DNA of 36,013 nucleotides from Candidatus Parcubacteria bacterium (lineage in GTDB: Bacteria > Patescibacteriota > Minisyncoccia > Phycocordibacterales > PALSA-1337): assembly GCA_034666165.1 (NCBI GenBank), contig JAXDMJ010000012.1:1-36013 (forward strand), written 5' to 3'. The position numbers and the translations under genes were made by a program. The number at the start of each line of letters is the position of its first letter. Positions within the stretch are counted from its first letter, which is position 1. A model generated the notes under the pieces. It was not told where the DNA came from and did not search any database. It was given only the letters and a program-made list of their open reading frames with translations. Positions 1-23,352 of this stretch are shown here, in pieces.

Positions 1-744
1 CTCTGGCCTCTGTTTAAAGCGATCTTCACCAAAGCGGACCACATCCAGACGATATCCACGTTTCTGGCGAAGTGGGCGAGGAAAATGGGAGCAACCTGTC
101 CGATCACGGTCGTGCCGAATGCCGCCGATTTCGCGCTCTTTTCAAAACAAGTCTCCTGGGCAGATTCCGAGGCCTTGAGGCAGAAATTCGACAGGAAAGA
201 AGGCGATGTCTTCCTGATCACTACTTCGCGCTTGGTCGTCAAGAATGCCGTCGGAGACGTCATCGAATCTCTCCGCCATCTTCCGCAGAACGTCAAATTC
301 CTGATTCTCGGAGAGGGCTATGAAGAAGGCAAGCTCCGGGAAAAAGTCGCAGCGCTCGGACTTGCCGGCCGGGTCCATTTTGCCGGTCATGTCGCTCATA
401 AGGACATGCCGGCGTTTCTGGGGATTTCCGATATCTTCGTGCGGCCGGCCCTCTCCGAGGGTCTGGGCAATTCATTCCTCGAGGCCATGGCCGCCGGCAT
501 TCCCGTCATCGCCACGCCGGTCGGCGGCATTCCCGACTTTTTGAAAGACGGGGAGACCGGACTTTTCTGCGAGGTCGGCAATCCGCGGAGCATCGCCCAG
601 AAAGTGGAGAAGCTCGTCAAGGACCGCGAATCGCGGGACTACATCGTCCGAAACGCCCGCGCCATGGTCAAAGAGAAATATGAGTGGCGGCGCATCGCCG
701 AGTCGATGAAAAAAATCTTCGACTCTCTGCCGTATAGGTTATAA
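1..744 (+). CDS. GT-B glycosyltransferase (GT4/Glycos_transf_1 type), C-terminal part; 5' end lies outside the window
   Basis: Frame 1 is open from nt 1 (LWPLFKAIFTKADHIQTISTFLAKWARKMGA...), so the ORF-track start at 85 is internal. Classic GT4 C-terminal motif SEGLGNSFLEAMAAGIPVIATPVGGIPDFLKDGETG (E-x7-E). Confidence 0.85.
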   Translation, partial: LWPLFKAIFTKADHIQTISTFLAKWARKMGATCPITVVPNAADFALFSKQVSWADSEALRQKFDRKEGDVFLITTSRLVVKNAVGDVIESLRHLPQNVKFLILGEGYEEGKLREKVAALGLAGRVHFAGHVAHKDMPAFLGISDIFVRPALSEGLGNSFLEAMAAGIPVIATPVGGIPDFLKDGETGLFCEVGNPRSIAQKVEKLVKDRESRDYIVRNARAMVKEKYEWRRIAESMKKIFDSLPYRL

Positions 745-753
745 TAAGCTGTC

Positions 754-1773
754 ATGAGAATTTTGATCGCTTCCGGCATTTATCCGCCCGATATCGGAGG
801 GCCGGCGCAATACGCGCGCAATCTCTTCGAGACCTGGAAAGCGGCCGGTCACGACGTCAAAGTGGCGGCCTACCGCTGGGAACGGGCCTTTCCGCCGCTC
901 GTCCGCCACTTTCTCTATTTCTTGAAGATCGTCCGCAAAGGCTTCAAGGCCGATCTCATCTTGGTGCTCGATACCTGGTCGGCGGCCGTGCCGACCATGT
1001 ATGCCTGCTCGCTTTTGGGCAAGAAATATATCACCCGGACGGGAGGCGATTTTCTCTGGGAATCATACGTCGAACGCACCGGCGACCTCGTCTTGTTCAA
1101 AGATTTCTACCGGACGCGCTTGAACCGGCTCTCGGCCAAGGAAAAGATGGTCTTCAAGCTGGGCGGCGCATCCATGCGCAGGGCGGCGGCCGTGATCTTC
1201 AGCACGGAGTGGCAGAGAAAGATCTTTATCCCGGTCTACAAGCTCGACGGCAGACGCACCTTTATCGTGGAAAATTTCTGCGGCGCGCGCGAAGAGCCGG
1301 CCGAGCCGGAGAATCGCGCTTTTGTCGCCGGCACGCGCACGCTCAAATGGAAGAACGTCGACGTCCTCAAGATGTCATTCGAGCTGGCGCGCCAAAAAGC
1401 CAAGGCGCTCGGCTTGCCTGACATCGAGCTTGATTGCGGAAAAGCCGTCTATGACAGCTTCGTCGCCAAAGTCCGCCAATCATACGCGGTCGTCTTGGTT
1501 TCTCTGGGCGACATCAGCCCGAACATGATCTTCGACGCCATCCGCGTCGGTACGCCTTTCATTCTGACCAGAGAGACCGGCATTGGGGAGAGGGTCAAGA
1601 CCTGCGCGATCTTCGTCGATCCCGAGGACCCGAATGATATTTCCGAGAAGATCGTCTGGCTCTCGGATGCCAAGAATCGCTCGCTCTTGGCCGACAAGGT
1701 CAGAAGATTCGGGTGGGTCCATACCTGGAGCGAGATCGGGGATGAGATCCTCCGCATATCGAAGAGAACATGA
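754..1773 (+). CDS. GT-B fold glycosyltransferase-like protein (GT4-like N-terminus, divergent C-terminal half)
   Basis: N-terminus MRILIASGIYPPDIGGPAQYARNL is typical of the GT4 N-domain. Its stop overlaps the next start (ATGA at 1770-1773). The C-terminal nucleotide-sugar motif is weak (DISPNMIFDAIRVGTPFILTRETG). Confidence 0.65.
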   Translation: MRILIASGIYPPDIGGPAQYARNLFETWKAAGHDVKVAAYRWERAFPPLVRHFLYFLKIVRKGFKADLILVLDTWSAAVPTMYACSLLGKKYITRTGGDFLWESYVERTGDLVLFKDFYRTRLNRLSAKEKMVFKLGGASMRRAAAVIFSTEWQRKIFIPVYKLDGRRTFIVENFCGAREEPAEPENRAFVAGTRTLKWKNVDVLKMSFELARQKAKALGLPDIELDCGKAVYDSFVAKVRQSYAVVLVSLGDISPNMIFDAIRVGTPFILTRETGIGERVKTCAIFVDPEDPNDISEKIVWLSDAKNRSLLADKVRRFGWVHTWSEIGDEILRISKRT

Positions 1774-2897
1774 AGCCGAATATCCATGTGCTCTCGTTTT
1801 CCACTGACACCTCCATATTTGAGGAAGGCAGCGCCGTCCGGGCGCGGATGGAACACTTCGGATCTCTGGTCGCCGGCATGGATATCATTTCCTTCGGCAC
1901 CCGCTATGGGCCGGTCACTCTCGCGCTCAAGAATAACGTCGTCGTCCACCGCGCTTGGGGCAGATCGAAGATCGGAGCGGCCGTCGGAGGCCTGCGCCTA
2001 GCCAGACGATTCGCCAAGCCCGAGACGGTCATCGTTTCGCAGGACCCCTTTGAGCTCGGGCTATTGGCCGTCCTCGCTTCGTGGCTCACTAAGCGTCCGC
2101 TCCATATCCAAGTGCATATCGATTTCATGAACCCATATTTCCGGCAGGAATCATGGCGGCGAAGGTTCCAGGCCGTTCTGGCTGTCTTCACTCTGGCTCG
2201 CGCCCGAAGCATCAGAGCCGTTTCGGCCAAGATCGCCGCCTATATCCGCGAAGAAATCGGCATCAGCGCCAAAAAGATCACCATCGCGCCGATTTTTGTC
2301 GACCACAAAGCGGTCATCGAAAAGCCGATCACAGTCAATCTCCACGAGCAGTTCCCCCAGTTCGATTGGATCTTTCTCCTGGCCTCGCGGTTCGTCAAGC
2401 AAAAGAATATTCCTTTGGCCATCGAGGCTTTTGATCTGTTCAGGAAATCGCGTTCCAAGGCCGGCTTGGTGATCGTCGGCTCCGGCCCCGAAGAGCCGGC
2501 GATCAGGCAGGCCATCGAGGAACGGGAGCTCGGGTCATTGGTGAAATTGGGCTCTTGGACGCATGAATTCGCTTCGTGCATGAAGACGTCCGATGTCTTT
2601 CTCTTGTCGTCGGATTATGAGGGCTGGGCGATGACGGTCATCGAAGCCGCGGCTCTCGGCAAATCCATCGTCATGACCGATGTCGGCTGCGCCGGCGAAT
2701 TCCTGATCCATCAAAAGAACGGCCTGGTCGTGCCGGCGCGGGACCGGAAGGCTCTGGCCGATGCCATGGAAAGATATTACGGCAATCGGGCTTTTGCCAA
2801 GAACATGGCCGAAGCGGCCGAGCGCGAGGCGGCGACCTACATGACCCGCGAGGAAAGCGACCAGCTCGTCCTTAAATCGTGGCAGAGCGCCCTATGA
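1770..2897 (+). CDS. Glycosyltransferase family 4 (GT-B)
   Basis: SDYEGWAMTVIEAAALGKSIVMTDVGCAGEFLIHQKNGLVV matches the E-x7-E Glycos_transf_1 signature. ATGA start/stop overlap with the upstream gene. Confidence 0.85.
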   Translation: MKPNIHVLSFSTDTSIFEEGSAVRARMEHFGSLVAGMDIISFGTRYGPVTLALKNNVVVHRAWGRSKIGAAVGGLRLARRFAKPETVIVSQDPFELGLLAVLASWLTKRPLHIQVHIDFMNPYFRQESWRRRFQAVLAVFTLARARSIRAVSAKIAAYIREEIGISAKKITIAPIFVDHKAVIEKPITVNLHEQFPQFDWIFLLASRFVKQKNIPLAIEAFDLFRKSRSKAGLVIVGSGPEEPAIRQAIEERELGSLVKLGSWTHEFASCMKTSDVFLLSSDYEGWAMTVIEAAALGKSIVMTDVGCAGEFLIHQKNGLVVPARDRKALADAMERYYGNRAFAKNMAEAAEREAATYMTREESDQLVLKSWQSAL

Positions 2898-2927
2898 ATC
2901 AGACTTCAGCATGAATCGAAACGCCTT

Positions 2928-3965
2928 ATGAAATTGCTCGTCTTCACGCAGAAAGTCGATCTGGACGACACCGTCCTCGCTTTTTTCCATCGCTGGATCC
3001 TCGAACTGGCCAAGCACTGCGAACGGCTGACGGTCGTCTGTCTCTATAAGGGTCGGCATGAATTGCCTCCGGCCGTCAGGGTTTTTTCGCTGGGCAAAGA
3101 AACGGGAAGATCCCGCGTCAAATATGTCCGGAATTTCTTCCGCTCGGCGAGCCTGCTCAAGGACGATTATGATTCGGTCTTCGTGCATATGAACCAGGAA
3201 TATGTCTTGCTCGGCGGCTTCTATTGGAAGTCTCTCGGCAAAAAGATATTCATGTGGAGGAACCATTACGCCGGCAGCCTGCTGACCGATGCTGCCGCGC
3301 TTTTTTGCGACAAGGTTTTCTGCACCTCGAAATATTCATATACCGCGAAGTACGCCAAAACCGTCCTCATGCCCGTCGGCGTCGATACCGAGGTTTTTAA
3401 GCCGATTGAGGGCGTCAGGCGGATGGAGCATTCCATCCTCTCGCTTGGCCGCATTTCGCCTTCAAAAAAAATCGAGCAGCTGATCGAAGCGCTGGCAATC
3501 CTAAAAAAACAGGGAAGCCGATTCGTCGCTTCTATATATGGAGATGCGCTACCTCCTGACGCCGGCTATTACCGCATGCTTAAAGAAAAAGCGCGTGAAC
3601 TCGAGCTTGACGACCGGCTGTCCTTCAAGCCCGGCGTGCCGAATCGGGCGACACCGGCGATATACAGCGCGCACGACATATTCGTCAATCTGAGCCCGAG
3701 CGGCATGTTCGACAAGACGATCTTCGAAGCGATGGCCTCCGGGACGATCATCGTATCCTCGAACCGAGATCTGGCCGACAAGATAGATGCCGAGTATCTA
3801 TTCGAGGAAAATGACGTCGGCGGCCTGGCGGCGCGGATTTCCGGCCTGCTCGCCATTAGGCGTGAGGAACGCGATGCGCGCGGAGAGCGGCTGAGGAAGT
3901 ATGCCGCGGAAAATCACGGCCTCGGTTTGCTCGCCAAACGTCTGGCTCTCGAAATGAGCGCCTGA
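2928..3965 (+). CDS. Glycosyltransferase family 1/4 (GT-B)
   Basis: N-terminus MKLLVFTQKVDLDDTVLAFFHRWILELAKH. C-terminal SPSGMFDKTIFEAMASGTIIVSSN motif. 345 aa, a typical GT-B size. Confidence 0.8.
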   Translation: MKLLVFTQKVDLDDTVLAFFHRWILELAKHCERLTVVCLYKGRHELPPAVRVFSLGKETGRSRVKYVRNFFRSASLLKDDYDSVFVHMNQEYVLLGGFYWKSLGKKIFMWRNHYAGSLLTDAAALFCDKVFCTSKYSYTAKYAKTVLMPVGVDTEVFKPIEGVRRMEHSILSLGRISPSKKIEQLIEALAILKKQGSRFVASIYGDALPPDAGYYRMLKEKARELELDDRLSFKPGVPNRATPAIYSAHDIFVNLSPSGMFDKTIFEAMASGTIIVSSNRDLADKIDAEYLFEENDVGGLAARISGLLAIRREERDARGERLRKYAAENHGLGLLAKRLALEMSA

Positions 3966-3971
3966 AAATGC

Positions 3972-5162
3972 ATGAAAACGCCTCTTTCACTGTTCATGAT
4001 CAACTACGACTGGCGGGATATTTTCCGAACGTCGTTTGTCGAGCTTTACGACAAGCTTTCGCGCGATCAGCTCGACCCGGCCGGCAACGACTTTTTCTTT
4101 TTTTCCTGGGCCAACACGTCGTATGATGGCCAGAACGGCAGGATGCGGACGGTCCATCGAAAGACACGCTTGTATCCTTTGAAGCCGCTGCTCGATTTCT
4201 TGACGGCCATCCGGGTCCTATTGGTCGCGAAGAAATACGAACTGCGTCCGGATGCATGGCTCACATACGATTTCGGCATGCTGCCGGCCCTGTGGCTCGC
4301 GAAGAAGCTCTTCGGCGGCGCGATCGTCCTTATCGTGTCCAGCCAGCCGCGCGTCTATTCCAAGACGAGGAGATTCGGCGGCATCAAATCTTTCTATTCG
4401 TGGGCGACGGAAAAGCTCTGGTGGCGGCTGGCAGATCATTTCTTCACGATCAATCAGAATATGAGGACCTATTTGAAGAACATCGGCATTCCCGAAGAAG
4501 ACATCACGGTTTTTTACGTGAATACCATCGACCGCGACCTGTCATTCATCTCCCGAGCCCGAAGAGGGATCATCAAGTCGCGGCATTCGATTCCGGCAGA
4601 GGCAAAGGTCATTTTGACGGTGGCTCGGCTGGAGTCTGAAAAAAACTATCCGCGGCTGCTCGAATTGTTCGCCGGGCTCGGTCCGGGGCACATTTTGATC
4701 TGTCTCGGCCGCGGCAGCCTGCTCGGCTCCCTCACGGAAAAGTCGCGGAAGCTCGGGATCGCAGACCATGTCATTTTTCCCGGCTTCGTCCATCGCGATC
4801 AGATCTGGAATTATTATGCCGATGCCGACGCTTTCGTACTCCTGTCAAAAGCCGAAGCGCTCGGCTTGGCCTTCTGGGAAGCCATGCATATGCACGTGCC
4901 GGTCGTCGGGAGCGAAGCTGACGGCATCGTTGAGACGATCGGCCGAGACGGCGACCGCGGGCGGATCTGGCGCGAGGAGGACGGGCTAACAGGTTTCAAC
5001 GAATCCATGCGCTTCTGCCTCGCGCCGAGCCCCGAAAGAGATGCTATGCTCTTACGAGCCGCGGAATACGTGAGGATCCAGCGGGGGAATAAGGCGACAT
5101 TCAACGATCTGCCGATATTCAAAAAAAGCCAGAGCAAACATGAAAATAATCGCCGGAAATAA
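3972..5162 (+). CDS. Glycosyltransferase family 1/4 (GT-B)
   Basis: C-terminal half has LTVARLESEKNYPRLLE...LLSKAEALGLAFWEAMHMHVPVVGSEADGIVE (GT1 motif). 7-nt gap to the upstream gene. Confidence 0.8.
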   Translation: MKTPLSLFMINYDWRDIFRTSFVELYDKLSRDQLDPAGNDFFFFSWANTSYDGQNGRMRTVHRKTRLYPLKPLLDFLTAIRVLLVAKKYELRPDAWLTYDFGMLPALWLAKKLFGGAIVLIVSSQPRVYSKTRRFGGIKSFYSWATEKLWWRLADHFFTINQNMRTYLKNIGIPEEDITVFYVNTIDRDLSFISRARRGIIKSRHSIPAEAKVILTVARLESEKNYPRLLELFAGLGPGHILICLGRGSLLGSLTEKSRKLGIADHVIFPGFVHRDQIWNYYADADAFVLLSKAEALGLAFWEAMHMHVPVVGSEADGIVETIGRDGDRGRIWREEDGLTGFNESMRFCLAPSPERDAMLLRAAEYVRIQRGNKATFNDLPIFKKSQSKHENNRRK

Positions 5163-5778
5163 TTTTAAGCCTTCATTTCCGTTCATGCTCGGGAACCGTC
5201 TCCGTGGCCGGAGTTTTCTATTCGAATTCTATTTCAAGGGGAAGAGGACGCTGGATGTCGGCTGCGGCGAGGGTGAATTCATGAAGCATGATAAGGAGCT
5301 CGTCACCGGTTTCGATCCCAATCGAAGGGTCATCGACCGCCTCAAGGCGGAAGGATTCAAAGCCGTCACGGCCGACGGGACGGCCATGCCGTTTGCGGAC
5401 GGGGAATTCGAGATGGCGCATTGCCATAACGTCATCGAACATCTCGATGTTCGGACGGCCTATGCGATGCTCAAGGAAACCGCGCGCGTGCTCAAGCCGG
5501 GCGGCTCCCTGGTCTTGAGTTCCGAGACAGTCAACAAAAAATTCTGGGAGACGTTCGGCCACGTCAAGCCATATCCGCCCGCGGCCGTAATCAAGCTTTT
5601 GCGTCCGGACAGCCGGGAAGAGTTCGAGGGCCTTAATGATTTCGAACCTGTCGGGCTGTTCTACATCGGCGATCTTTTCAAGAACCGGCTGGCCTATTTC
5701 CTGTCATTCACGGTCGGCCACTTTACTCCGTTCTTCCGCCGCGAATATTTTCTGGTCCTCCGGAAGCGACAGTCATGA
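5140..5778 (+). CDS. Class I SAM-dependent methyltransferase (Methyltransf_11-like)
   Basis: Motif I LDVGCGEGEF, then FEMAHCHNVIEHLD and LKPGGSLVL. Start is uncertain: ATG 5140 overlaps the upstream gene by 23 nt, and the alternative ATG 5185 lies after its stop. Confidence 0.8.
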   Translation: MKIIAGNNFKPSFPFMLGNRLRGRSFLFEFYFKGKRTLDVGCGEGEFMKHDKELVTGFDPNRRVIDRLKAEGFKAVTADGTAMPFADGEFEMAHCHNVIEHLDVRTAYAMLKETARVLKPGGSLVLSSETVNKKFWETFGHVKPYPPAAVIKLLRPDSREEFEGLNDFEPVGLFYIGDLFKNRLAYFLSFTVGHFTPFFRREYFLVLRKRQS

Positions 5779-6821
5779 AAGTCCTATATCTCTTGAACAA
5801 GGTATCTGGCAAGGTGATCGAAGATGCCAGAAAAGGAAAAGGGCATGACAGCTGGCTTTACGGCATGCTGCGCCTGCCGAAATACGGCATTGAAACGGAA
5901 TTGCTCGAGATCGAGCAGTACATCCCTTCGGCTCTGGCGCGTTTTCTGCGGCGGCATATATTGACCATGCACTACGCCCATCTGCCGCTCTTCCCGCTTT
6001 TCTTCAGATACGATATCGTCTTTACGTCCACGGCCTACGCATCGCTTATCTTGAAAGCGATCCTGCGCGTCAGGAAGTTCAAATGGGTCATCCTTGATTT
6101 CAACGTCTTGGGGACGATCGGCGAGCGGAAGACCATTCGCCAAAAGATATATGCCTGGGCGGTGTCGAAAGCCGACGGAGTAGTGACGATTTCGGAGGCC
6201 GCCTCTCGCGCCATGGAGAAGCGATTCCCTCATCTCTCGGATAAGATCATTTTCCTCCATGAGGCCACCGACACGGATTATTTCAAGCCGCGGCCTCTCG
6301 TCAAAGAGACGAACTCGATCATTTCAGTCGGCAATTTCGGGCGCGACTTCGAGACGGCCATCGAGGCCACCAAAGATCTGGGCGTGGCGCTCCATCTGGC
6401 CACAAAACTGATTACGCCTGAGCTTGCACGGGTTTTGCCGCCGCACGTTTCAGTCAGACTTTATGATCACGGAGAGATCGTCCGGGCGTATGCCGAAGCT
6501 AAAATAGCCCTGGTGACGCTCGCTCCCAGAGACGACTATTATGATTCGGTCGGCACTTTTGCGGTCGGCGAAGCCATGGCCATGGGCAAAACCGCGATCG
6601 TCACCCATACGAAGAGCATGGAATCATACGTGACCGACAGCGTCACGGCTTTTTTCGTGCCGCATCAAAATGCTATGGCCCTGAAGGCACGGATCATCGA
6701 GCTCTTGAGAAATAATGAATTGAGGCATAGGATAGGAGAACAGGCCCGAACGTTCGCCGTCGAGAATCTCGATCCCGAACGGTTTGCGCGCCGCTTGGCG
6801 GCCTATTTCAGGACATTATGA
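5775..6821 (+). CDS. Glycosyltransferase family 1/4 (GT-B)
   Basis: C-terminal DSVGTFAVGEAMAMGKTAIVTHTKSMESYVTDSVTAFFV motif. ATGA overlaps at both ends (5775-5778 and 6818-6821). Confidence 0.75.
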   Translation: MKVLYLLNKVSGKVIEDARKGKGHDSWLYGMLRLPKYGIETELLEIEQYIPSALARFLRRHILTMHYAHLPLFPLFFRYDIVFTSTAYASLILKAILRVRKFKWVILDFNVLGTIGERKTIRQKIYAWAVSKADGVVTISEAASRAMEKRFPHLSDKIIFLHEATDTDYFKPRPLVKETNSIISVGNFGRDFETAIEATKDLGVALHLATKLITPELARVLPPHVSVRLYDHGEIVRAYAEAKIALVTLAPRDDYYDSVGTFAVGEAMAMGKTAIVTHTKSMESYVTDSVTAFFVPHQNAMALKARIIELLRNNELRHRIGEQARTFAVENLDPERFARRLAAYFRTL

Positions 6822-7759
6822 AAATCTCCATCGTTCTTCCCATTTATAACGAACAGGAAAATATCGCCATTCTGTATAAAGAGTTGGTTAAAGTCTTCAG
6901 CAAGGAAAAAAACGACTACGAGATCATCGCGGTCGATGACGCCTCGAAAGACGGCAGTCTCACCGTCCTAAAGAAGATCGCGGCGGAGGACAAGAGGGTC
7001 AAGGTCATCAGTTTCCGTTTCAACTCCGGACAGACGGCCGCCATGTCGGCCGGCATCAAACAGGCGAGCGGAGAGATCATCATTCCGATGGACGCCGACT
7101 TGCAGAATGATCCGGCTGACATTCCCAAATTCCTCTTCAAGATCGCCGAAGGATATGACGTCGTTTCCGGCTGGCGACAAAAGCGGCAGGACGACATGCT
7201 CATGCGCAAGATCCCTTCGGCGGCCGCCAACTGGCTCATCCGCACCATGACCGGCGTTCACATCCACGATTACGGCTGCTCGATGAAAGCCTATCGCCGC
7301 GGGATCATCCAAGGCATCAATCTCTACGGCGAGATGCACCGTTTCATTCCTGCCTATGCGGCCTGGCATGGCGGCAAAGTCACGGAGATCATCGTCCACC
7401 ATCGCGCCCGCGTCCACGGCCGGACGAAGTACGGAATTTCACGGACGTTCAAAGTCCTGCTCGACCTCGTTGTGGTGAAGTTTTTGGCCAAGTACATGGA
7501 CCGCCCTATGCACTTTTTCGGCGGTATCGGTTTTATCTCGCTCGGGCTCGGATTGCTCGCCGGTCTCATCGCTATTTATCTGAAGCTCGCGCACATCCGC
7601 GATTTCGTGGCCACGCCTCTGCCGATCTTCTCGGCGCTGTTCATCATCGTCGGCGTAGAGCTCGCGGTCATGGGCGTGATCGCCGAGATGATCATGCGCG
7701 TCTATTACGAGTCGCAGAACAAGCTGCCATACCAGATCTCCGAGACCGTGAACATTTAA
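6818..7759 (+). CDS. GT2 polyprenyl-phosphate glycosyltransferase (DPM1/GtrB/ArnC-like) with two C-terminal TM helices
   Basis: MKISIVLPIYNEQENI...AVDDASKDGS...MDADLQNDPADIP...HDYGCSMKAYRR...YGEMHRFIPA. C-terminal hydrophobic helices FFGGIGFISLGLGLLAGLIAIY and PIFSALFIIVGVELAVMGVIAEMI. This is the family architecture that loads a sugar onto a lipid phosphate carrier. Confidence 0.85.
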   Translation: MKISIVLPIYNEQENIAILYKELVKVFSKEKNDYEIIAVDDASKDGSLTVLKKIAAEDKRVKVISFRFNSGQTAAMSAGIKQASGEIIIPMDADLQNDPADIPKFLFKIAEGYDVVSGWRQKRQDDMLMRKIPSAAANWLIRTMTGVHIHDYGCSMKAYRRGIIQGINLYGEMHRFIPAYAAWHGGKVTEIIVHHRARVHGRTKYGISRTFKVLLDLVVVKFLAKYMDRPMHFFGGIGFISLGLGLLAGLIAIYLKLAHIRDFVATPLPIFSALFIIVGVELAVMGVIAEMIMRVYYESQNKLPYQISETVNI

Positions 7760-7760
7760 C

Positions 7761-9629: not shown

Positions 9630-9646
9630 AGTATAATGCCCAAATT

Positions 9647-13368: not shown

Positions 13369-13407
13369 ACTTTAGCCGGCCATAAACTGGTGGCCGGCCA
13401 TAAACTC

Positions 13408-15075: not shown

Positions 15076-15099
15076 TCAAAGTGTGATAGGCTATGCCTC

Positions 15100-16357: not shown

Positions 16358-16358
16358 T

Positions 16359-17429
16359 ATGGCAAAAACCGTCTTATATTTCGGCATCTTTGACCCGAAT
16401 TTCTCGCGCAATAGAGTTTTCGCGGCCGGTTTGAAGGCGAACGGCATCAATGTGATTGTCTGCACGGATACGAGTCCCGGGCTACTCAAATATTGGCGCC
16501 TTTTTCGCAAGCACCGGACGGTGCGTGACCAGTACGACGCGGTCATAGTCGGTTTCCCCGGCTATGCGGCGGCGCCTTTGGCGAAATTGATCGCTCGGCG
16601 CGGGCGGCCGGTCATCTTCGACGCGCTCTGTTCGTTCTACGAGACGCAGATCATTTCGCGAGACGCCTATCGGGGCAATCCCCTTCGGATCCCGTACGTG
16701 CGCTCGATCGACTGGCTCGCCGCGCGATCAGCGGATTTCATTTTGGTTGAGACGGAACGTCAGAAGGAATATTTCGCGGAGGAACTCGGTGTGCCGCGGG
16801 GGAAATGCGTCGTCGTTTACACCGGCGCGGACGATTCGGTCTTTCATCCCGACGATTCGGTCAAGAAGCGCGAGCGGTTCACCGTGCTCTTCCGCGGGCG
16901 CATCACGCCGGAGGCCGGCGCCATTCATGTTCTCGGGGCCGCCAAGCTTCTCGAAAATGAAGACATCGATTTTCTGGTCATCGGCTTCGGCTGGGGCTCT
17001 GTCATGGAAAAATTCGACGCGGCTCTCGCGTCGCTCAAGCTTAAGAATATCCGGCATATCCGCGAACAGATCCCGATCGAGGAACTGCGGAAGCTCTCGC
17101 TCGGATGTCATGTCAGCCTCGGGCAATTCGCATTCTGTGAACGGCTCAAGCGGACCATTCCGCATAAGGCCTTTGAGTCCATGGCCATGAAGATCCCCTA
17201 TATCACGGCCCGCGCCGGAGGCGTCGCCGAGATCTTCTCCGATCGGGAGAACTGCCTCATGGTCGATCCGGCCGACCCGGCCGACATTGCCGCCAAGATC
17301 ACGATGCTTAAAAATGACGCCGCGCTAGCCCATCGTCTGGCAGACAACGCTCTCGCGCTCTATCAAAGCCGGTTCACGCCGCAAAAGATCGTTAAGCCGA
17401 TCATCGGACTCTTGACTCGTCCTCTATGA
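16359..17429 (+). CDS. Glycosyltransferase family 1 (GT-B)
   Basis: MAKTVLYFGIFDPNFSRNRVFAAGLKANGINVIV N-terminus. C-terminal IPHKAFESMAMKIPYITARAGGVAEIFSDRENCLMV. ATG 16359 is 1 nt after the upstream stop. Confidence 0.75.
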   Translation: MAKTVLYFGIFDPNFSRNRVFAAGLKANGINVIVCTDTSPGLLKYWRLFRKHRTVRDQYDAVIVGFPGYAAAPLAKLIARRGRPVIFDALCSFYETQIISRDAYRGNPLRIPYVRSIDWLAARSADFILVETERQKEYFAEELGVPRGKCVVVYTGADDSVFHPDDSVKKRERFTVLFRGRITPEAGAIHVLGAAKLLENEDIDFLVIGFGWGSVMEKFDAALASLKLKNIRHIREQIPIEELRKLSLGCHVSLGQFAFCERLKRTIPHKAFESMAMKIPYITARAGGVAEIFSDRENCLMVDPADPADIAAKITMLKNDAALAHRLADNALALYQSRFTPQKIVKPIIGLLTRPL

Positions 17430-18268
17430 AGAAATTGCTAAAAGCAATCGTACCGAAGACTCTCTGGGAATTTGTCCGCAGAATGCTCTTTAGAGTGCCG
17501 GCCGCCTTCGAGCATCTCGGTCCCTACGAGAGGCACATGAGGTATCGCGGCTTTAAACTGCATTACGCCCGTGGCGATTCGATCGTCAAGCGGCTGCGGC
17601 GCGAGCCCGTCTTTGAGGAAAAAATGTGCCAGGACATCGTACATGAACTGAATAAGTCCCAGTCGCCCGTTTTTCTGGACATCGGCGCCAATATCGGCCT
17701 CATCAGTTTATATGTTGCCGCCGCGGCGCCCGCGGCAAAGATCTATGCCTTCGAGCCTGGTCCGGTCCAGGCAGGCATGCTCGAGAAAACTATCGAATCG
17801 AATAAGCTTACAAGCCGCATTGAACTCACTATCGCGGCATTGTCAGACTCTGCCGGCCGGCGAAAATTCCATATTCACCCCGCGCATGACATGTCGAAGG
17901 ACGGTCTTCGGGATACGGGCAGGGGAGAAAAGGCCATGGTCGCCGAAGTGGACACCCTCACTCTCGATGACTGGTGGGAAAAGACGGGTTCGCCGCGGAT
18001 TAACGTAGTCAAGATCGACACGGAAGGCGCGGAACTCTTGATCCTTCGCGGGGCCAGATTTTTCCTGGCAAAGGCCCGCCCGGTCGTCTATCTCGAGATA
18101 GAACGGAGCAATCTCAAAGCCTATCCGTATTCGGCGGGAGATATTCTCTCCTTTCTGGGAGATATGGGCTATAGCCTGTCCTCGCTCCAGGGAGAGCGCG
18201 CCGACGCGGAGAATCTCAATGACCTCCTCCGCACGGGCGACACATTCCGCGCCGCGCCTCTGCCCTAG
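17426..18268 (+). CDS. FkbM-family SAM methyltransferase
   Basis: FLDIGANIGLISLY...IYAFEPGP...VKIDTEGAELLIL are FkbM (Methyltransf_21) hallmarks. ATGA overlap with the upstream gene. Confidence 0.85.
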   Translation: MKKLLKAIVPKTLWEFVRRMLFRVPAAFEHLGPYERHMRYRGFKLHYARGDSIVKRLRREPVFEEKMCQDIVHELNKSQSPVFLDIGANIGLISLYVAAAAPAAKIYAFEPGPVQAGMLEKTIESNKLTSRIELTIAALSDSAGRRKFHIHPAHDMSKDGLRDTGRGEKAMVAEVDTLTLDDWWEKTGSPRINVVKIDTEGAELLILRGARFFLAKARPVVYLEIERSNLKAYPYSAGDILSFLGDMGYSLSSLQGERADAENLNDLLRTGDTFRAAPLP

Positions 18269-18981
18269 TCCGTCTTATAGAGACCGCGCCGGCTGAAGAT
18301 CGAATCCTCGAATAATATCTCGCCTGTTTTCGGGTGCCGTTTGCTTTGCAAGCTTCCGTGATATTCAAATCCTTTTTCTGCGAGCGTGCGATATATGCCG
18401 TCGAACAGGATTTGTCCGGCATAGAGCGGGTAAAATGACGTCTCGGCGATGATGACGGAAACATCGGCGAGCAGGCGCTCCGCGCCGCGAAGCACCCGGT
18501 CCTCGTAGCCCTGCACGTCGAGCTTGAGCAGGATGTTTTTTTCAAGCTTTTGCGCGGACAAGACGGAATCCAGCGTCCTCGCCTCGACCTCGTCTTTGGC
18601 GGTTTGGCCGACATGGGGGAACGCTTCTTCGAGCAAGGCGGTATTCTTAAGCAGAGAAGAACTCGGCGAGTACTCGTTCTTATTGATCACGAACATGCCG
18701 GCTCGGTCTCCCAGCGCGAAATTATACGGACTGAAATGCCGGTCCCCTCGCCGTGAAGCGACCAGTTCGAGAAAGCACTCCTTGATCGGCTCAAAGGAAT
18801 GGATATGCGCTTCCGGCAGCACCCGACGGATGTCATGCGCGAATTGGCCGGCATTGGCGCCGACGTCGATCGCAGTCCGGATGCCGAAGTGCCGCAGGAA
18901 ACCAAGGGGTTCGATCCTATCGCGAGTGCGGACTATATCGATGCCGGCGGCGCGGAAAGCCCGTCTAAGATGCTCTTTCAT
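18265..18981 (-). CDS. FkbM-family SAM methyltransferase (opposite strand)
   Basis: AIDVGANAGQFAH...IHSFEPIKE...LLKLDVQGYEDRVL. Its stop shares the palindrome CTAG (18265-18268) with the stop of the convergent plus-strand FkbM gene. Confidence 0.85.
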   Translation of the reverse strand: MKEHLRRAFRAAGIDIVRTRDRIEPLGFLRHFGIRTAIDVGANAGQFAHDIRRVLPEAHIHSFEPIKECFLELVASRRGDRHFSPYNFALGDRAGMFVINKNEYSPSSSLLKNTALLEEAFPHVGQTAKDEVEARTLDSVLSAQKLEKNILLKLDVQGYEDRVLRGAERLLADVSVIIAETSFYPLYAGQILFDGIYRTLAEKGFEYHGSLQSKRHPKTGEILFEDSIFSRRGLYKTD

Positions 18982-19061: not shown

Positions 19062-19751
19062 ATGAAGACTATTGATCCGGTCGTCCAGAAGCACATTGCG
19101 GAGATCAAGGCTGCCGGCGAAAGCGCGTATCGCGAGGGCGCTGTCACGCTCTTCGGCGGCTTTCCGGAAAGCCTGAAGCACCGCGCGGTCGTCGCGGCCT
19201 TCGGAGTGATCGAACAGAGCCCCGTTCGCTGGGAAATCATGAGGATGATCGAGACGGATGACATGGCGGTCATCGCCGACAAAGATTTTCCGCTTCACGC
19301 TCTTTTATTCGAGGCTGACTCTGATCCGGACCGATGGCAAAGCCTCGATGCTCTCTGGCGGGACATAGACCGCTATTTCATGACCAATGAGGATTGTGCG
19401 CGCCTGACCGTCGGTTCCGAGCTCCATTTCACGGAGATCGTGGCAGATGCTTCGGGTGATGTCCTCTTGCTCGCCGGCGAGATCGCCGAGAATGTGCGCG
19501 CCATGCGCTCCGATCTGGCTGGCCTGTTCGGAAAATATGGGCTCCACGTCCGGCCGCTCGACCATGTCCTCGCGGTCACGCTGATCAAGCTTAAGTCATG
19601 GTCCGCTCGAACCGTTCCCGACGCCTTGAGGGCGTTCCGTGAAAATCTGGAAGCCGTGGCGGATCGAACCCGCACCCAGCCGGTGTCCATGAAAGTGACC
19701 AGATTTTTCAGAGGTTCGGCTTTCGAAATGCTCACTAGAATGTCCTTCTAA
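19062..19751 (+). CDS. Hypothetical protein (229 aa, soluble, no family recognised)
   Basis: Clean ORF with a plausible RBS, followed by a hairpin + T-tract terminator. No signal peptide or TM segment and no motif I can name. Confidence 0.6.
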   Translation: MKTIDPVVQKHIAEIKAAGESAYREGAVTLFGGFPESLKHRAVVAAFGVIEQSPVRWEIMRMIETDDMAVIADKDFPLHALLFEADSDPDRWQSLDALWRDIDRYFMTNEDCARLTVGSELHFTEIVADASGDVLLLAGEIAENVRAMRSDLAGLFGKYGLHVRPLDHVLAVTLIKLKSWSARTVPDALRAFRENLEAVADRTRTQPVSMKVTRFFRGSAFEMLTRMSF

Positions 19752-19767: not shown

Positions 19768-19793
19768 GCCGGGCTGCCCGGCTTTTTATTTTT
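19768..19793 (+). terminator. Rho-independent terminator
   Basis: GCCGG-gctgc-CCGGC hairpin (19768-19782) followed by TTTTTATTTTT (19783-19793), between convergent genes. Confidence 0.6.
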
Positions 19794-19799: not shown

Positions 19800-21074
19800 T
19801 TATTCCGGAGCTCTGGCCGGATTCCTCATCTCGGCGCGCAGCATAAAATAGGCGATGCCGACGTTTATATATGAAGCGGCGATTCTCGCGAGACAGACGC
19901 CGAAGAGCCCCCAGAGATATGCCGCCGGCACGAGCGCCAGGATCTGGAAGAGCGAACCGATGATCGTATACTTTGCCAGCTCCTTCTCTTTTTTCTGCGC
20001 GACGAAGACGGACGATGGGATCATGGCGAGCGAAGACAGGATCATCAAAGCCAAAAGCCGCGAAAAGAAGACGGATTCAGGGTACTTCGGAAAGAAAATC
20101 GAATACAGGAACGGAGCGAGGATTATGTAACCAAGCGTGATGGCGACGACCAGAGCCAAGAGTTGCAGCGCTTTCCGGCGCAGCGAAAGCGCTTCTCCGG
20201 CGGCGCTTCTCTCTGTGAATTTGGGGACCATGAGCGTGTTCAAGTTCTTGAGGACATTGCGTATCTGATCCGGAAAGGCTGTGGCAAAGCCGTAGACGGC
20301 CAATTCGACCGAACCGAGAAATGAATAGACGATGACCTTGTCAATGTTGGCGGCGACGATGCCGATCACATTGAGGACGCTCAACTTTTTGCTGTAGCTC
20401 TCGAGTTCCGGATCGGCGGCAGCGCCCGGTCTGAAGGCCGAGAGAGTCCGTTCATAGAGGACGTAGCCCATCAGCGTGTTGGCGGCGAAATAGACGAGCA
20501 CGAGATAAATGACCCGGTCGGTGAGAAAGATCGCGCCGAAGACGAGCAAGGCGGGAACGACATTGTCGATGACGGTGTATATGCTCAAGCGCTTGAAATC
20601 TTTTTTTCCGTTGATGAAGCCGACAAACAGGCCCCAACTGTTCATAAGCGGCGCAGCTAAAGAAATGATCAAAAGCGAGAAGCCGAGGAACATGTTCCCA
20701 TGGGTGAAATAATAGGCCGAACCGGCCAAGGCGCCGGCGACCATGAGGCCGCTCCAGCGCATGGCCAGCCGGAAACCCTGCCGCAATGAACCTTCAAAGC
20801 CGCGCGCCACCGACTGGATGATAGCGGTATTGAGGCCGGTCAGGGAAAAGGCCGAGAGGACGGCGAAGATCGACAGGACGTAGCGATAATCTCCATAGAC
20901 GCTCTTCGGCAGGAAATAGGCGAAGCCGACGGAAATGAAGAAATTCGCGGCGGTCGTGAGGACCTGCCCCGAAATCAGCCAGAAGCCGCCGTGCGTCAGG
21001 TAGACCATGTCCGTCTTGGTATATCGTTCGGTCCAGCGGAGAAATTGATATCCAAGCCGCTTGAGCTTTCGCAT
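19800..21074 (-). CDS. Oligosaccharide/polysaccharide flippase (Wzx-like, MOP superfamily)
   Basis: 424 aa, about 12 hydrophobic helices. The basic N-terminus MRKLKRLGYQFLRWTERYTKTD followed by TM bundles is typical of the Polysacc_synt family. Glycan-locus context supports the call. Confidence 0.75.
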   Translation of the reverse strand: MRKLKRLGYQFLRWTERYTKTDMVYLTHGGFWLISGQVLTTAANFFISVGFAYFLPKSVYGDYRYVLSIFAVLSAFSLTGLNTAIIQSVARGFEGSLRQGFRLAMRWSGLMVAGALAGSAYYFTHGNMFLGFSLLIISLAAPLMNSWGLFVGFINGKKDFKRLSIYTVIDNVVPALLVFGAIFLTDRVIYLVLVYFAANTLMGYVLYERTLSAFRPGAAADPELESYSKKLSVLNVIGIVAANIDKVIVYSFLGSVELAVYGFATAFPDQIRNVLKNLNTLMVPKFTERSAAGEALSLRRKALQLLALVVAITLGYIILAPFLYSIFFPKYPESVFFSRLLALMILSSLAMIPSSVFVAQKKEKELAKYTIIGSLFQILALVPAAYLWGLFGVCLARIAASYINVGIAYFMLRAEMRNPARAPE

Positions 21075-21128: not shown

Positions 21129-21137
21129 TGCTATAGT
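21129..21137 (+). promoter_or_regulatory. Extended -10 promoter element TGCTATAGT upstream of the Wzy_C-TPR gene
   Basis: TGCTATAGT sits 19 nt before ATG 21157. The identical 9-mer recurs at 23404-23412. Confidence 0.4.
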
Positions 21138-21156
21138 ATCGTCCACTCATATTTCC

Positions 21157-23352
21157 ATGCCCATCAAAAAGATCGCATACTATATTTCGCTGGCGGCCTT
21201 ATTCGTCATTCCTGCTTTCCCGCTGATCGTCGCCAATTCTTTGTTCTTTCCTTTCATCACCGGCAAAGCTCTCTACTTCCGCTTTCTGGTCGAGATCGCT
21301 TTTGCCGCCTGGCTGATCCTCGCATTTCTTGACGCGCGATATCGCCCGAAATTGAAACCCCTTTCCGTGGCTGTCTGCCTGTTCGCGCTCGTCACGCTCG
21401 TCGCCGATCTCTTGGGCGTCAATCCGATGAGGAGCCTCTGGTCGAATTTTGAGCGCATGGAAGGGTGGATCACCATCATCCATCTCTCTGCATTCTATAT
21501 AGTGGCTGCGTCCATATTCGGTTCGAACCATGAGGACAAACGCCTCTGGCATCGCTGGCTCAACGTCGCGTTATTCGTGGGATTGATCGTGGCTATTTAC
21601 GGATTGTTCCAGCTTTTCGGGCTGGCGGCCATCCATCAGAGCAGCTCCCGTCTCGATGCTTCGCTTGGCAACTCGGCCTATATGGCGGTTTACATGCTTT
21701 TCCAGGTCTTCATCGCGGCCTACATGTTCTTCGTCGCCCGGGGTAAAAGGATCGGCAACTATGCTTTTTTGCAATTTGCATATCCGATCCTGGCAATCCT
21801 GTATTGTTTCATCATCTTTGAAACGCAGACCCGCGGCACGATCCTGGGCCTTTTGGGCGGCATCATGCTGGCGCTGTTCCTGTACGCGGTTTTCGGCAAA
21901 GGGCAGGCTGAGAAATGGCGCCTGACGTCAGCCGGCATTCTGGTCTTCATCATCCTCGTTGGCGCAGTCTTTTGGCTTAACCGCGGCGCCGCCTTCATCC
22001 AGCGCGACCCTGTTCTCGGACGCCTGGCGACGATTTCCTGGAGCGATGCCAGCAATCAGGCCCGCCAGTATATCTGGCCGATGGCCTTGAAGGGCGTCGC
22101 CATCCGCCCTATCTTCGGCTGGGGCCAGGAGAATTTCAACTATATCTTCAACGCCGATTATGATCCCGCCATGTATGCTCAAGAGCAATGGTTCGACCGC
22201 GCCCACAGCGTTTTTCTCGACTGGCTGGTAGCCTCCGGCTTCGTCGGTCTGCTTTCATATCTTTCCCTCTACGTGCTCTTTCTCTTAGCTCTCTGGAAAT
22301 CATCCTTGTCAGTCGCAGAAAAAAGCGTTTTGACCGGACTTCTCGCCGGTTACGCCATCCATAACGTTTTCGTTTTCGACAATCTGGCCAGTTACGCCCT
22401 GTTCTTCGCCGTTCTGGCCTTTGCCAGTTCGCTCCAAAAAGGGAGAGAGACCTCTTTGTTCGGCACGAAGCCGGTACGCACCGACGTGGTCGAATATATC
22501 GGCGCGCCGATCGTCGTGATCGCCCTCGTTTTCGCTGTCTATTTCTATAACGTCAGGACCTTGCGGGCCAACCGGGATCTGATCCTGGCCCTCTCGGCCT
22601 GCAGTTCGGCGCCCGATACGGCGCTCTTCGAGAAAGCTTTGGGCGTTCACGCCTCCGTGGCTGATCAAGAGATCAGAGAACAGCTCATGTCGTGCACCGG
22701 ACGCGTCGTCGGTAACCAGCGCGCGCCCGTCGGCCTCAAGCAATCGTTCTTCGCTCTGACCATGAATGAGGTCCAAGCTCAAGCTTCCAGCACGCCGCTC
22801 GACACCCGCATCTATGCCTTGGCCGGTTCGCTCTTGAACGGCGCCGGCCAATTCGTGACCGCTTTGCCGTATCTGGAAAAGGCCCATCTGCTTTCACCGG
22901 GCAAGCAGACCATCGATTTCGAGCTGGGTACGGCCTATTTGAATACCGGCAAGACCGACGACGCCCTGGCGCTCCTTAAGGGCGCCTACGAATCGGCCCC
23001 CGCTTACTATCAGGCAAAAGCTTCATACGCCACGGCCTTGGTGCTTTCCGGCAAAGAGGCCGAGGCCAGGAAGATCTTCAACAATGATCCGGCTATTTTT
23101 GAGACCGATCTTATGGGCCAAGTCTACGCCAATCTGAAACAATACGATAAAGCGCTGCCGATATTCAAGAAATTGGCGGCGACACAGCCGACTGACGTCA
23201 ACGCGCAGGCCCAATATGCCCAAGTGCAATATGCCGCCGGGATGGTGACGCAGGCGATAGCCACGATGCGCGGCGTCGAAAAAGATCATCCCGAGCTCAC
23301 GGCCTCGATCGAAGCCGCCATCAAAGACGTGCAAAGTCAGGCCAATAAATAG
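21157..23352 (+). CDS. O-antigen ligase family (Wzy_C domain) polytopic membrane protein fused to C-terminal TPR repeats
   Basis: N-terminal ~450 aa have about 12 helices, including the Wzy_C-type segment FETQTRGTILGLLGGIMLALFLY and a large loop. C-terminal ~230 aa are TPR-like (ALPYLEKAHLLSPGKQTIDFELGTAYLNTGKTDDALALLKGAYESAP...). Confidence 0.8.
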   Translation: MPIKKIAYYISLAALFVIPAFPLIVANSLFFPFITGKALYFRFLVEIAFAAWLILAFLDARYRPKLKPLSVAVCLFALVTLVADLLGVNPMRSLWSNFERMEGWITIIHLSAFYIVAASIFGSNHEDKRLWHRWLNVALFVGLIVAIYGLFQLFGLAAIHQSSSRLDASLGNSAYMAVYMLFQVFIAAYMFFVARGKRIGNYAFLQFAYPILAILYCFIIFETQTRGTILGLLGGIMLALFLYAVFGKGQAEKWRLTSAGILVFIILVGAVFWLNRGAAFIQRDPVLGRLATISWSDASNQARQYIWPMALKGVAIRPIFGWGQENFNYIFNADYDPAMYAQEQWFDRAHSVFLDWLVASGFVGLLSYLSLYVLFLLALWKSSLSVAEKSVLTGLLAGYAIHNVFVFDNLASYALFFAVLAFASSLQKGRETSLFGTKPVRTDVVEYIGAPIVVIALVFAVYFYNVRTLRANRDLILALSACSSAPDTALFEKALGVHASVADQEIREQLMSCTGRVVGNQRAPVGLKQSFFALTMNEVQAQASSTPLDTRIYALAGSLLNGAGQFVTALPYLEKAHLLSPGKQTIDFELGTAYLNTGKTDDALALLKGAYESAPAYYQAKASYATALVLSGKEAEARKIFNNDPAIFETDLMGQVYANLKQYDKALPIFKKLAATQPTDVNAQAQYAQVQYAAGMVTQAIATMRGVEKDHPELTASIEAAIKDVQSQANK

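Follow-up and report, generated by a model that had tools for sequence, protein, structure and literature searches.

What kind of glycan would a bacterium of the Patescibacteria assemble from a long run of glycosyltransferase and methyltransferase genes, and to what would it be attached? We addressed this question with a gene cluster on contig JAXDMJ010000012.1 of Candidatus Parcubacteria bacterium; the window that we analyzed is the entire 36,013-bp contig. The cluster begins with 18 consecutive plus-strand genes (g01 to g18, positions 1-18268). A first-pass annotation of this DNA had described them as tightly packed, and the map of open reading frames (ORFs) and the junction sequences confirmed this, with a widest intergenic gap of 30 nt and start/stop overlaps at 1770, 5775, 6818, 10465, and 17426 (ATGA) and at 11610 (TGATG). 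Its gene inventory was reproduced exactly by Pfam scans of the ORFs: the 18 genes encode eight GT4-type glycosyltransferases (GTs) of the GT-B fold, one GT2, an AsnB amidotransferase, six methyltransferases (five of class I and one FkbM), one flippase-like protein, and one GT-C enzyme. Downstream lie genes for a minus-strand FkbM methyltransferase (g19), an ORFan (g20), a minus-strand Wzx flippase (g21), and a protein with Wzy_C and TPR domains (g22). The description as an envelope-glycan locus was thus well founded, and we consider it probable that this is an exchangeable cassette for a cell-surface glycan, present here in one of its versions, in a genome of the Patescibacteria (Parcubacteria/Paceibacteria). 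The cassette extends from g01 through the Wzx gene (1-21074), and a conserved backbone begins at the Wzy_C-TPR gene (21157-23352) and continues with murB, secA, obg, and gatB.

We compared the proteins of the window by BLAST with the ORFs of 19 related loci (numbered with an L below), for which ±10 kb around the GT-C gene were fetched. The order GT2-AsnB-(MT)-GT4-(MT)-flippase-like-GT-C-(MT)-GT4-FkbM-FkbM(-)-Wzx(-)-Wzy_C-TPR(+), where MT is a methyltransferase, recurs in Patescibacteria loci. Locus L022 is almost collinear with g08-g22; its Wzy_C-TPR protein is only 36% identical, and the cassette order is kept. The Wzx gene is the last gene of the variable cassette and has the same position and strand in 10 related loci, and g19 has an equivalent at the same position and strand in L014, L019, L020, and L022. 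Two loci, L027 and L028, were chosen via their Wzy_C-TPR protein. Both have the murB-secA order downstream as in the window, with identities of 71-72% for SecA, 55-58% for MurB, and 53-58% for the Wzy_C-TPR protein, and L027 additionally keeps AI-2E-obg-gatB(-)-merR(-). Wzx is absent beside the Wzy_C-TPR gene in both. The upstream glycan genes of L027 are unrelated to those of the window (PMT_2, GT2, epimerases, a C-methyltransferase, and FkbM). Locus L028 has at 1-9874 a cassette of the ATP-binding cassette (ABC) type, with Wzm, Wzt carrying a Wzt_C glycan-cap-binding domain, three class I methyltransferases, FkbM, AsnB, GT2, and GT4, which by analogy would imply methyl-capped chains as in E. 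coli O8/O9a and in Geobacillus S-layer glycans. Part of the backbone order is found in L018 (Wzy_C-TPR followed by murB) and L022 (Wzy_C-TPR followed by secA, with no murB match). Since the same backbone stands beside unrelated upstream glycan genes in L027 and L028, the window fits the pattern of a glycan cassette that varies while its anchor, Wzy_C-TPR–murB–secA, stays fixed, and g22 belongs to the backbone and not to the cassette.

For the left GT4 block (g01-g07), orthologues with 53-77% identity were identified in L004 and L010, which are without AsnB and the flippase-like gene, and L016, L017, and L022 are without the left block within the ±10 kb fetched. Such a separation of the left block from the right block (g08-g18) would suit an explanation by which the genes are unrelated and independent, a set of sugar modifiers in a compact genome with no single product, cytoplasmic synthesis of a polymethylated polysaccharide included; Patescibacteria genomes are dense, and overlapping genes are weak evidence of a common function. 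We hold this explanation to be highly improbable, since the gene order is conserved over relatives whose proteins are only 33-68% identical to those of the window, gene fusions tie the flippase-like part to the GT-C part (see below), the block is exchanged in its entirety at the fixed anchor, and three membrane components for translocation or transfer indicate an extracytoplasmic product. A cytoplasmic polysaccharide like the mycobacterial methylmannose polysaccharide (MMP) or methylglucose lipopolysaccharide (MGLP) was rejected given Wzx, the flippase-like protein, the GT-C, and the WaaL-like enzyme. Accessory genes in the relatives encode GtrA, PMT_2, nucleotidyltransferases, a carbamoyltransferase, and a UDP-glucose dehydrogenase. 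No near-identical characterized cluster was found; the best relatives are uncultured metagenome-assembled genomes (MAGs) at 33-81% protein identity.

A Wzy_C-TPR gene beside Wzx would suggest a polymerase. However, g22 is a highly conserved backbone gene that also lies beside unrelated cassettes, including one of the Wzm/Wzt type, as would be expected of a ligase or oligosaccharyltransferase. Homologues of g22 form at least 4916 clusters, the top 120 of which share its architecture of ~730 aa at 52-66% identity. A comparison of its membrane domain with PDB sequences gave nothing useful, and fold comparison alone worked: for the AlphaFold2 (AF2) model (pLDDT 86), WaaL (7tpg_B, TM-score 0.63) is the only membrane-protein match among the 50 Foldseek matches listed. 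The model has 12 WaaL-like helices and a 13th. Pfam TPR matches span residues ~534-713, a domain of roughly 200 residues, which, judged from WaaL topology, would lie outside the membrane on the side of the catalytic loop. Residues R226, R289, R303, H350, G361, and G364 are invariant. An Arg-Arg-His triad is known from WaaL (R215/R288/H338) and PglL (R224/R298/H349) (PMC3643930), and R226, R289 or R303, and H350 of g22 parallel it, a correspondence by position and order and not by structural alignment.

In a classical Wzx/Wzy pathway, the GT4 enzymes would make a large methylated repeat, Wzx would flip it, and g22 would polymerize it; the resulting capsule or secondary cell-wall polysaccharide would be linked to peptidoglycan by an enzyme whose gene lies elsewhere. 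The Wzx and Wzy_C genes indeed form a divergent pair that is kept in L010, L018, and L022, murB is next door, and some Wzy_C proteins are polymerases (PMC10920833). We nevertheless regard this pathway as unlikely. Ligases, described as using 'different donors, same acceptor', are moderately conserved, and polymerases are the most diverse class (PMC10920833); the identity of g22 over more than 100 homologous clusters fits the pattern of a ligase and not the diversity of polymerases. Moreover, g22 adjoins both Wzx-type and ABC-type cassettes, the latter needing no Wzy, which argues for a ligase or oligosaccharyltransferase rather than a polymerase; WaaL is its only membrane-protein neighbor among the structural matches mentioned above, and there is no gene for Wzz or another polysaccharide co-polymerase (PCP) in the window or the related loci. 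We infer that g22, the only candidate for a Wzy polymerase of the cassette, is probably a ligase or O-oligosaccharyltransferase (O-OTase) with a WaaL fold rather than a Wzy repeat-unit polymerase. With no credible Wzy polymerase in the window, a long defined oligosaccharide, one of two products suggested by the first-pass annotation, fits better than a polymer.

A lipopolysaccharide (LPS) O-antigen was rejected on the Patescibacteria taxon and the conserved monoderm-type backbone, in agreement with the earlier view that a classical O-antigen is unlikely. Patescibacteria are monoderm-like and are not known to have LPS or lipid A-core. The homologues of g14 and of the Wzy_C-TPR protein come from MAGs; those with a label at the phylum level are named Patescibacteria, Parcubacteria, Taylorbacteria, Paceibacterota, or Saccharibacteria (an automatic label), with one MAG named Gammaproteobacteria (L019) as the sole exception. 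The nearest relative of g14 (57% identity) belongs to a Candidatus Taylorbacteria MAG. Over the cluster and the housekeeping genes, GC content varies little (0.51-0.58); hence, there is no compositional sign of recent import.

The murB gene and a peptidoglycan-binding protein had been read as clues to a wall- or protein-linked glycan. Both are backbone neighbors and not members of the pathway, and the gene for the latter is absent at this position in the relatives L027 and L028. It lies between murB and secA (24779-26578, plus strand), encodes an NHL-repeat β-propeller with a C-terminal PG_binding_1 domain, and has the lowest codon-usage score in the window (0.077 versus 0.31-0.51). It may have been inserted recently, or its product may be a surface protein and candidate glycosylation target. 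Further downstream (29199-30820), a gene for a GalE/TviC-like epimerase of the short-chain dehydrogenase/reductase (SDR) family overlaps the end of secA by 61 nt and is followed by a 52-aa ORF and a NUDIX hydrolase gene. In L027, a cytidylyltransferase-like gene stands in place of this islet, whose products might provide or modify a nucleotide sugar used by the cassette.

Sugar activation had been listed among the functions that the locus lacks. This calls for revision, as the GT2 enzyme g08 itself appears to be a lipid-phosphate sugar-activating enzyme of the ArnC/PgfS/GtrB type that pairs with the flippase-like and GT-C genes. Against NCBIfam models, g08 aligned end to end with ArnC, the undecaprenyl-phosphate 4-deoxy-4-formamido-L-arabinose (Ara4FN) transferase (204 bits, model positions 7-312 of 316), and reached 170 bits with PgfS, both scores being below the equivalog cutoffs. 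It has a DXD-type motif (DAD, residues 92-94) and three hydrophobic segments in its C-terminal third. The full-length match and these segments together point to a polyprenyl-phosphate glycosyltransferase and not a chain-building GT2. Orthologues at 55-79% identity are present in 12 related loci, mostly with AsnB directly after, and the GT2-AsnB pair is conserved in 11.

We propose that g13 is the translocator of the polyprenyl-phosphate sugar made by g08. A gene of the g13 type is directly before the GT-C gene in L014, L016, L017, L019, and L022, with one methyltransferase gene between them in L015, and a flippase-like gene is near a GT-C also in L007 and L011. Pfam found no GtrA domain in the window; g13 is of the LPG_synthase_TM type instead. 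In the g14 family there are natural fusions of LPG_synthase_TM with GT-C (P0194, 867 aa) and of GtrA with GT-C (P0172, P0186, and P0039, 658-695 aa). These fusions link g13 to g14, imply a flipped polyprenyl-phosphate-sugar donor, and suggest that an MprF-flippase-like domain and GtrA can substitute for each other in carrying such donors.

The first-pass annotation had called g14, 561 aa from the start of its ORF, GT-C-like, and its predicted structure bears this out. No Pfam or NCBIfam model matched g14, and the profile of its family found nothing among PDB sequences, so that fold comparison alone was informative. The AF2 model, built from 41 homologues, has a pLDDT of 92.4 and a pTM of 0.92, and the top 24 Foldseek matches in the PDB are all GT-C enzymes (probability 1.0, TM-score 0.44-0.51), the structural neighbors including ALG12, ArnT, ALG9, AftA, Pmt4, PglB, and DPY19. 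D45 and E46 are invariant in the 41 sequences and lie past the first helices, in a region that runs from non-helical residues 30-43 to the start of the helix H44-59; this stretch is assumed from the GT-C fold to be on the extracytoplasmic side. Hence, g14 combines the polytopic fold of the GT-C superfamily with a conserved acidic residue in the predicted first loop. One homology search gave 41 clusters of homologues, and among 1.84 billion cluster representatives the family has 360 members at E<=1e-3 and 58 at E<=1e-30; PMT_2/GT22 domains are borne only by distant relatives (E 1e-26 to 1e-10). The protein thus appears to be a member of a small GT-C family restricted to Patescibacteria. The genes g13 and g14 are adjacent, g08 is within the same operon-like block, and their co-occurrence recurs in related loci. 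We predict that g08, g13, and g14 form a three-component extracytoplasmic glycosylation system, with a flippase domain of the MprF type in the place of GtrA.

The remaining enzymes of the 18-gene block would act on the oligosaccharide in the cytoplasm. The canonical EX7E motif is present in four of the eight GT-B proteins (g01, g03, g05, and g11). Loss of catalytic residues or decay to pseudogenes had been considered for the GT-like ORFs; all ORFs of the cluster are intact, and the GT2 has its DXD motif. The closest NCBIfam model of g09 is an exopolysaccharide-associated amidotransferase (TIGR03108, 564 bits, below the cutoff of the model), and we suppose that this AsnB protein probably amidates a uronic acid in the glycan. 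A distant relative, L007, has at 4036-7556 a GT4 fused to a class I methyltransferase (602 aa) and another GT4 (571 aa) with weak-to-faint Pfam matches to P-loop (AAA-family) proteins, and a RelB/YafQ toxin-antitoxin pair lies just upstream, within the glycan region.

The locus had also been described as lacking initiation. Indeed, Pfam found no Bac_transf or WecA-type primer in the window, and no Wzz/PCP or ABC exporter (Wzm/Wzt), and in 17 related loci, the ±10 kb around the GT-C gene yielded neither a priming transferase (Bac_transf, MraY/WecA, or Glycos_transf_4) nor Wzz. Primers encoded outside the cluster are common, and WecA is encoded away from the E. coli O-antigen loci; an external primer is therefore ordinary and does not make the pathway 'non-standard', as had been concluded, and the cluster is cut at its left end, so that the window by itself says nothing about genes further left. 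A primer gene left of this truncated end was rejected as an explanation, as the cassettes of L004 and L010 open with the g01 orthologue and the related loci contain no primer family.

The lack of a priming transferase is what would be expected of a lipoglycan like the phosphatidylinositol mannosides (PIM), lipomannan (LM), and lipoarabinomannan (LAM), for which GT4 enzymes would glycosylate a membrane lipid anchor with no need of a phosphoglycosyltransferase, and the product would be flipped and extended by the GT-C with the polyprenyl-phosphate sugar made by the GT2. The combination of GT4, GT2 polyprenyl-phosphate-sugar synthase, and GT-C matches the logic of PimA/PimB, Ppm1, and PimE/Mpt, and some NCBIfam matches of g11 are to GT4s of glycolipid anchors. 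However, all of these matches are far below the cutoffs, and priming genes outside the cluster are, as said, common. Wzx and an enzyme with a WaaL fold are present, and in WaaL a conserved Arg pair binds the diphosphate of the undecaprenyl-diphosphate (Und-PP) donor (PMC10920833). We therefore find a PIM/LAM-like product rather improbable, less so than a collection of unrelated genes and more so than a Wzx/Wzy polymer.

Our favored reading, to which we give a fair degree of belief, is an exchangeable cassette for a defined, methylated oligosaccharide that is decorated by the GT-C and transferred by g22 as ligase or O-OTase. In a first step, up to eight GT4-type GT-B enzymes would build the oligosaccharide on polyprenyl diphosphate at the cytoplasmic face, starting from a primer product encoded elsewhere; the five class I and two FkbM methyltransferases would methylate its sugars, and AsnB would probably amidate a uronic acid. 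Wzx would then flip the lipid-linked glycan. In parallel, g08 would load a sugar onto polyprenyl monophosphate, g13 would translocate it, and g14 would add it to the glycan outside the cell, a step modeled on the Gtr, CsbB/GtcA/YfhO, Pgf, and WsfH/WsfD systems. Finally, g22 would move the completed glycan en bloc onto an acceptor that is itself conserved; this would most likely be a surface protein such as an S-layer protein or pilin, or else a wall or lipid acceptor. The gene content, folds, families, taxon, synteny, cassette replacement, and flippase–GT-C fusions are observations; the order of the steps, the use of a diphosphate carrier, the role of g22 as ligase, the kind of acceptor, and the identity of the sugars are deduced from them.

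Several points weigh against this pathway. Acceptor, carrier lipid, and glycan are read from genes alone and go beyond the assignment of families and folds. The assignment of Wzy_C proteins as ligase, O-OTase, or polymerase is impossible from sequence alone (PMC3643930). [quoted passage not shown] The canonical EX7E motif is not at its usual place in g02, g04, g07, and g17, and the number of active GT-B transferases may therefore be lower than eight. Assembly on a diphosphate carrier is assumed, with no primer found in the window or the related loci, and the primer would have to be encoded outside the cassette. Two loci that share the backbone and carry different cassettes (L027 and L028) were inspected. 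A single long transcript over 1-18268 is plausible, and the counts of promoter-like and terminator-like sites neither prove nor break this operon model: internal consensus sites numbered 16 versus 10.1±3.2 and 28 versus 22.7±4.4 expected from shuffled sequence, so that promoters and terminators are not in excess. Overlapping stop and start codons and tight packing are usual in such glycan clusters (PMC2943079); hence, the packing is not remarkable by itself.

The first convincing plus-strand terminator, and the best plus-strand site in both scans, is the hairpin at 19768-19782. The ORFan g20 upstream of it encodes a soluble protein; its in-frame codon usage is gene-like, only the protein itself was found among 5.8 billion proteins, and it is absent from the related loci. 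It probably does not belong to what is conserved in the pathway. The Wzx protein g21 is multi-spanning, with 13 overlapping hydrophobic windows that amount to roughly 9-10 distinct segments in a crude scan.

The left contig end cuts the 5' part of g01, which was predicted as a partial gene on the JGI contig (see below). Full-length orthologues of g01 open the cassette in the two closest relatives, preceded by a TrwB-like gene in L004 and by an unrelated, family-less ORF in L010; the window is thus probably short of only ~160 codons of g01 and not of further cassette genes. In another assembly (JGI) of the same sample, the contig is split into pieces of 6.3 kb and 29.8 kb, with an overlap of ~28 bp at 6254-6281 inside g07. 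The order g05-g06-g07-g08-g09 is kept in L011; hence, the join is sound, a chimeric assembly at g07 was rejected, and the probable cause of the break is variation between strains, or paralogous GT4 sequence, in the community. Rfam and tRNA scans found no RNA genes in the whole window. Near the right end (34454-36013), GC dips to 0.45 around a small minus-strand MerR/helix-turn-helix gene (34518-34778), and a partial ORF (~35174-36013) exits the contig; the corresponding gene in L027 encodes a giant protein of 2202 aa. The features of the cluster are collected in the table.

Table. Genes and transcription signals of the glycan cassette and of the adjoining backbone; coordinates refer to the window, E values and bit scores to the domain models named.
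Feature	Position	Strand	Assignment	Evidence and remarks
g01	1-744	+	GT4, C-terminal half only	Glycos_transf_1 1.5e-40; EX7E; orthologues ~410 aa, 65-72% identity (L004, L010)
g02	754-1773	+	Divergent GT-B (weak GT4)	Glyco_transf_4 28.9 bits, barely over cutoff; orthologues 64-74% (L004, L010)
g03	1770-2897	+	GT4	Glycos_transf_1 1.6e-31; EX7E; ATGA overlap with g02
g04	2928-3965	+	GT4	Glycos_transf_1 1.4e-19
g05	3972-5162	+	GT4	Glycos_transf_1 6.1e-26; EX7E
g06	5140-5778	+	Class I S-adenosylmethionine (SAM) methyltransferase	Methyltransf_11 6.3e-17; orthologues 77-81% (L004, L011)
g07	5775-6821	+	GT4	Glycos_transf_1 5.1e-13; contains the break of the other assembly (6254-6281)
g08	6818-7759	+	GT2 polyprenyl-phosphate glycosyltransferase (ArnC/GtrB/PgfS/DPM1 type), predicted	Glycos_transf_2 3.5e-33; C-terminal transmembrane helices
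g09	7761-9629	+	AsnB-type glutamine amidotransferase	Asn_synthase 1.1e-96 + GATase_7
g10	9608-10468	+	Class I SAM methyltransferase	Methyltransf_12 2.3e-13; start possibly ATG 9647
g11	10465-11610	+	GT4	Glycos_transf_1 4.7e-37, Glyco_transf_4 5.7e-19; EX7E
g12	11610-12371	+	Class I SAM methyltransferase	Methyltransf_12 2.2e-15
g13	12364-13368	+	MprF-flippase-domain-like membrane protein	LPG_synthase_TM 6.7e-33; TIGR00374 flippase-like domain
g14	13390-15075	+	GT-C-fold glycosyltransferase, 11 transmembrane helices	Start probably ATG 13408 (555 aa)
g15	15100-15765	+	Class I SAM methyltransferase	Methyltransf_23 7.6e-15; 80% identical orthologue in L004
g16	15767-16357	+	Class I SAM methyltransferase	Methyltransf_11 1.5e-08; ORF opens 15620, likely start TTG 15767 after GGAGA
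g17	16338-17429	+	GT4	Glycos_transf_1 2.2e-16; kept downstream of GT-C gene in most related loci
g18	17426-18268	+	FkbM-family methyltransferase	Methyltransf_21 1.2e-20
g19	18265-18981	-	FkbM-family methyltransferase	Methyltransf_21 4.6e-19; convergent with g18, 4-nt tail overlap
Promoter-like site of g19	19018-18989	-		Promoter scan
g20	19062-19751	+	ORFan, 229 aa, soluble	No Pfam or NCBIfam match
Intrinsic-terminator-like hairpin	19768-19782	+	Between convergent g20 and Wzx	GCCGGGCTGCCCGGC then T-run
g21	19800-21074	-	Wzx-type flippase (MOP family)	Polysacc_synt 5.9e-14 (52.6 bits; cutoff 28.2) + Polysacc_synt_3
g22	21157-23352	+	Wzy_C (WaaL/PglL-type) membrane enzyme with C-terminal TPR domain	Wzy_C 6.4e-21 (75 bits) + TPR
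Terminator-like hairpin	23463-23475	+	Closes the g22 unit	GGCCCTTCGGGCC then T-run; terminator scan
Promoter-like site before murB	23523-23550			TTGCCA-16-TATAAT, 11/12 matches
murB	23633-24700	+	First housekeeping gene of the backbone	FAD_binding_4 + MurB_C; context, not glycan pathway

To our knowledge, all cultivated Patescibacteria are episymbionts on other microbes, and their surface chemistry is essentially unknown. A study of Saccharibacteria pili called the glycosylation processes of the group 'unexplored' (PMC11623550). We tentatively suggest that Paceibacteria have a general surface glycosylation system, in which the phylum-conserved Wzy_C-TPR enzyme, encoded beside murB-secA, would be the O-OTase or ligase that acts on S-layer proteins, pilins, or the wall, and serotype-like cassettes exchanged between lineages would set the glycan, which in this genome might be a heavily O-methylated, amidated, and branched oligosaccharide made with a lineage-specific GT-C and an MprF-type flippase. 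Such a system, if true, would be the first glycosylation machinery to be defined in the Candidate Phyla Radiation (CPR), and it would probably help to determine host attachment and phage specificity. The locus provides a concrete inventory of parts and a constant place in the genome, upstream of Wzy_C-TPR–murB–secA, at which the diversity of surface glycans can be catalogued. A genome of about 1 Mb is typical of Patescibacteria; were this genome of that size, ~21 kb would be much to spend on a glycan cassette. The enzyme class of nearly every part is already known, and the overall logic is that of known surface-glycan systems; the new elements are the Patescibacteria-only GT-C family, its MprF-type flippase partner, the anchor with exchangeable cassettes, and the unusual load of methyltransferases. 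Of wider use are the small GT-C family with no Pfam or NCBIfam model and the fusion evidence for an MprF-flippase-like stand-in for GtrA. With an otherwise conventional enzymology, the value of the locus is that of a lead for CPR envelope biology and not of a new principle.

The closest described analogue appears to be the S-layer glycan (slg) cluster of Paenibacillus alvei. In strain CCM 2051T, it encodes the AsnB homologue WsfA, the Wzy_C O-OTase WsfB with a C-terminal TPR, the lipid-phosphate-glucose GT2 WsfH, the membrane transferase WsfD for a branching sugar, and cytoplasmic GTs, and the cluster of Geobacillus stearothermophilus NRS 2004/3a combines Wzm/Wzt with a methyl cap (PMC2943079). 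Our locus shares with these slg clusters a monoderm-type envelope, tight packing with overlapping codons, cytoplasmic GTs, glycan methylation, AsnB, the union of Wzy_C and TPR, and a GT2 together with a membrane transferase, and the ABC-type cassette of L028, with Wzm/Wzt and methyltransferases, resembles that of Geobacillus. This likeness is one of described architecture, at the level of genes. In contrast to P. alvei, the cassette in the window has no initiating Gal-1-P transferase (WsfP/WsaP), and Pfam found no S-layer structural gene in the window; it has a dedicated flippase-like gene, which P. alvei has not, its GT-C is of a different, Patescibacteria-only family, and its seven methyltransferases are many more.

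The predicted g08-g13-g14 system is similar to GtrA/GtrB/GtrC of Shigella phages, CsbB/GtcA/YfhO, ArnC/ArnE-F/ArnT, and PgfS/PgfM1/PgfM2, in all of which a GT2 with C-terminal transmembrane helices, a small polytopic translocator, and a GT-C are encoded together. It differs in its translocator, which is of the LPG_synthase_TM (MprF-flippase) type and not GtrA or EmrE-like, in a GT-C with no Pfam family and no sequence-level match to solved structures, and in the AsnB gene conserved directly after the GT2. Likewise, g22 resembles WaaL (CAZy GT121) and PglL/PilO in its Wzy_C domain, WaaL fold, invariant Arg/Arg/His, and conservation independent of the donor cassette, whereas its extra transmembrane helix and TPR domain, and the lack of a PglL_A motif, set it apart. 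The acceptor of WaaL, lipid A-core, cannot apply to a host without lipid A-core, and there are no lipid A genes in the window. As a whole, the arrangement recalls the rfb loci of E. coli and Salmonella, where a variable cassette also occupies a fixed position, related genomes have Wzx-type and ABC-type versions, and the primer and the ligase are encoded outside the variable part. Unlike rfb, it belongs to a cell with no outer membrane or LPS, has no evident Wzy polymerase and no Wzz or nucleotide-sugar synthesis genes in the cassette, and places the ligase-like gene immediately next to the cassette.

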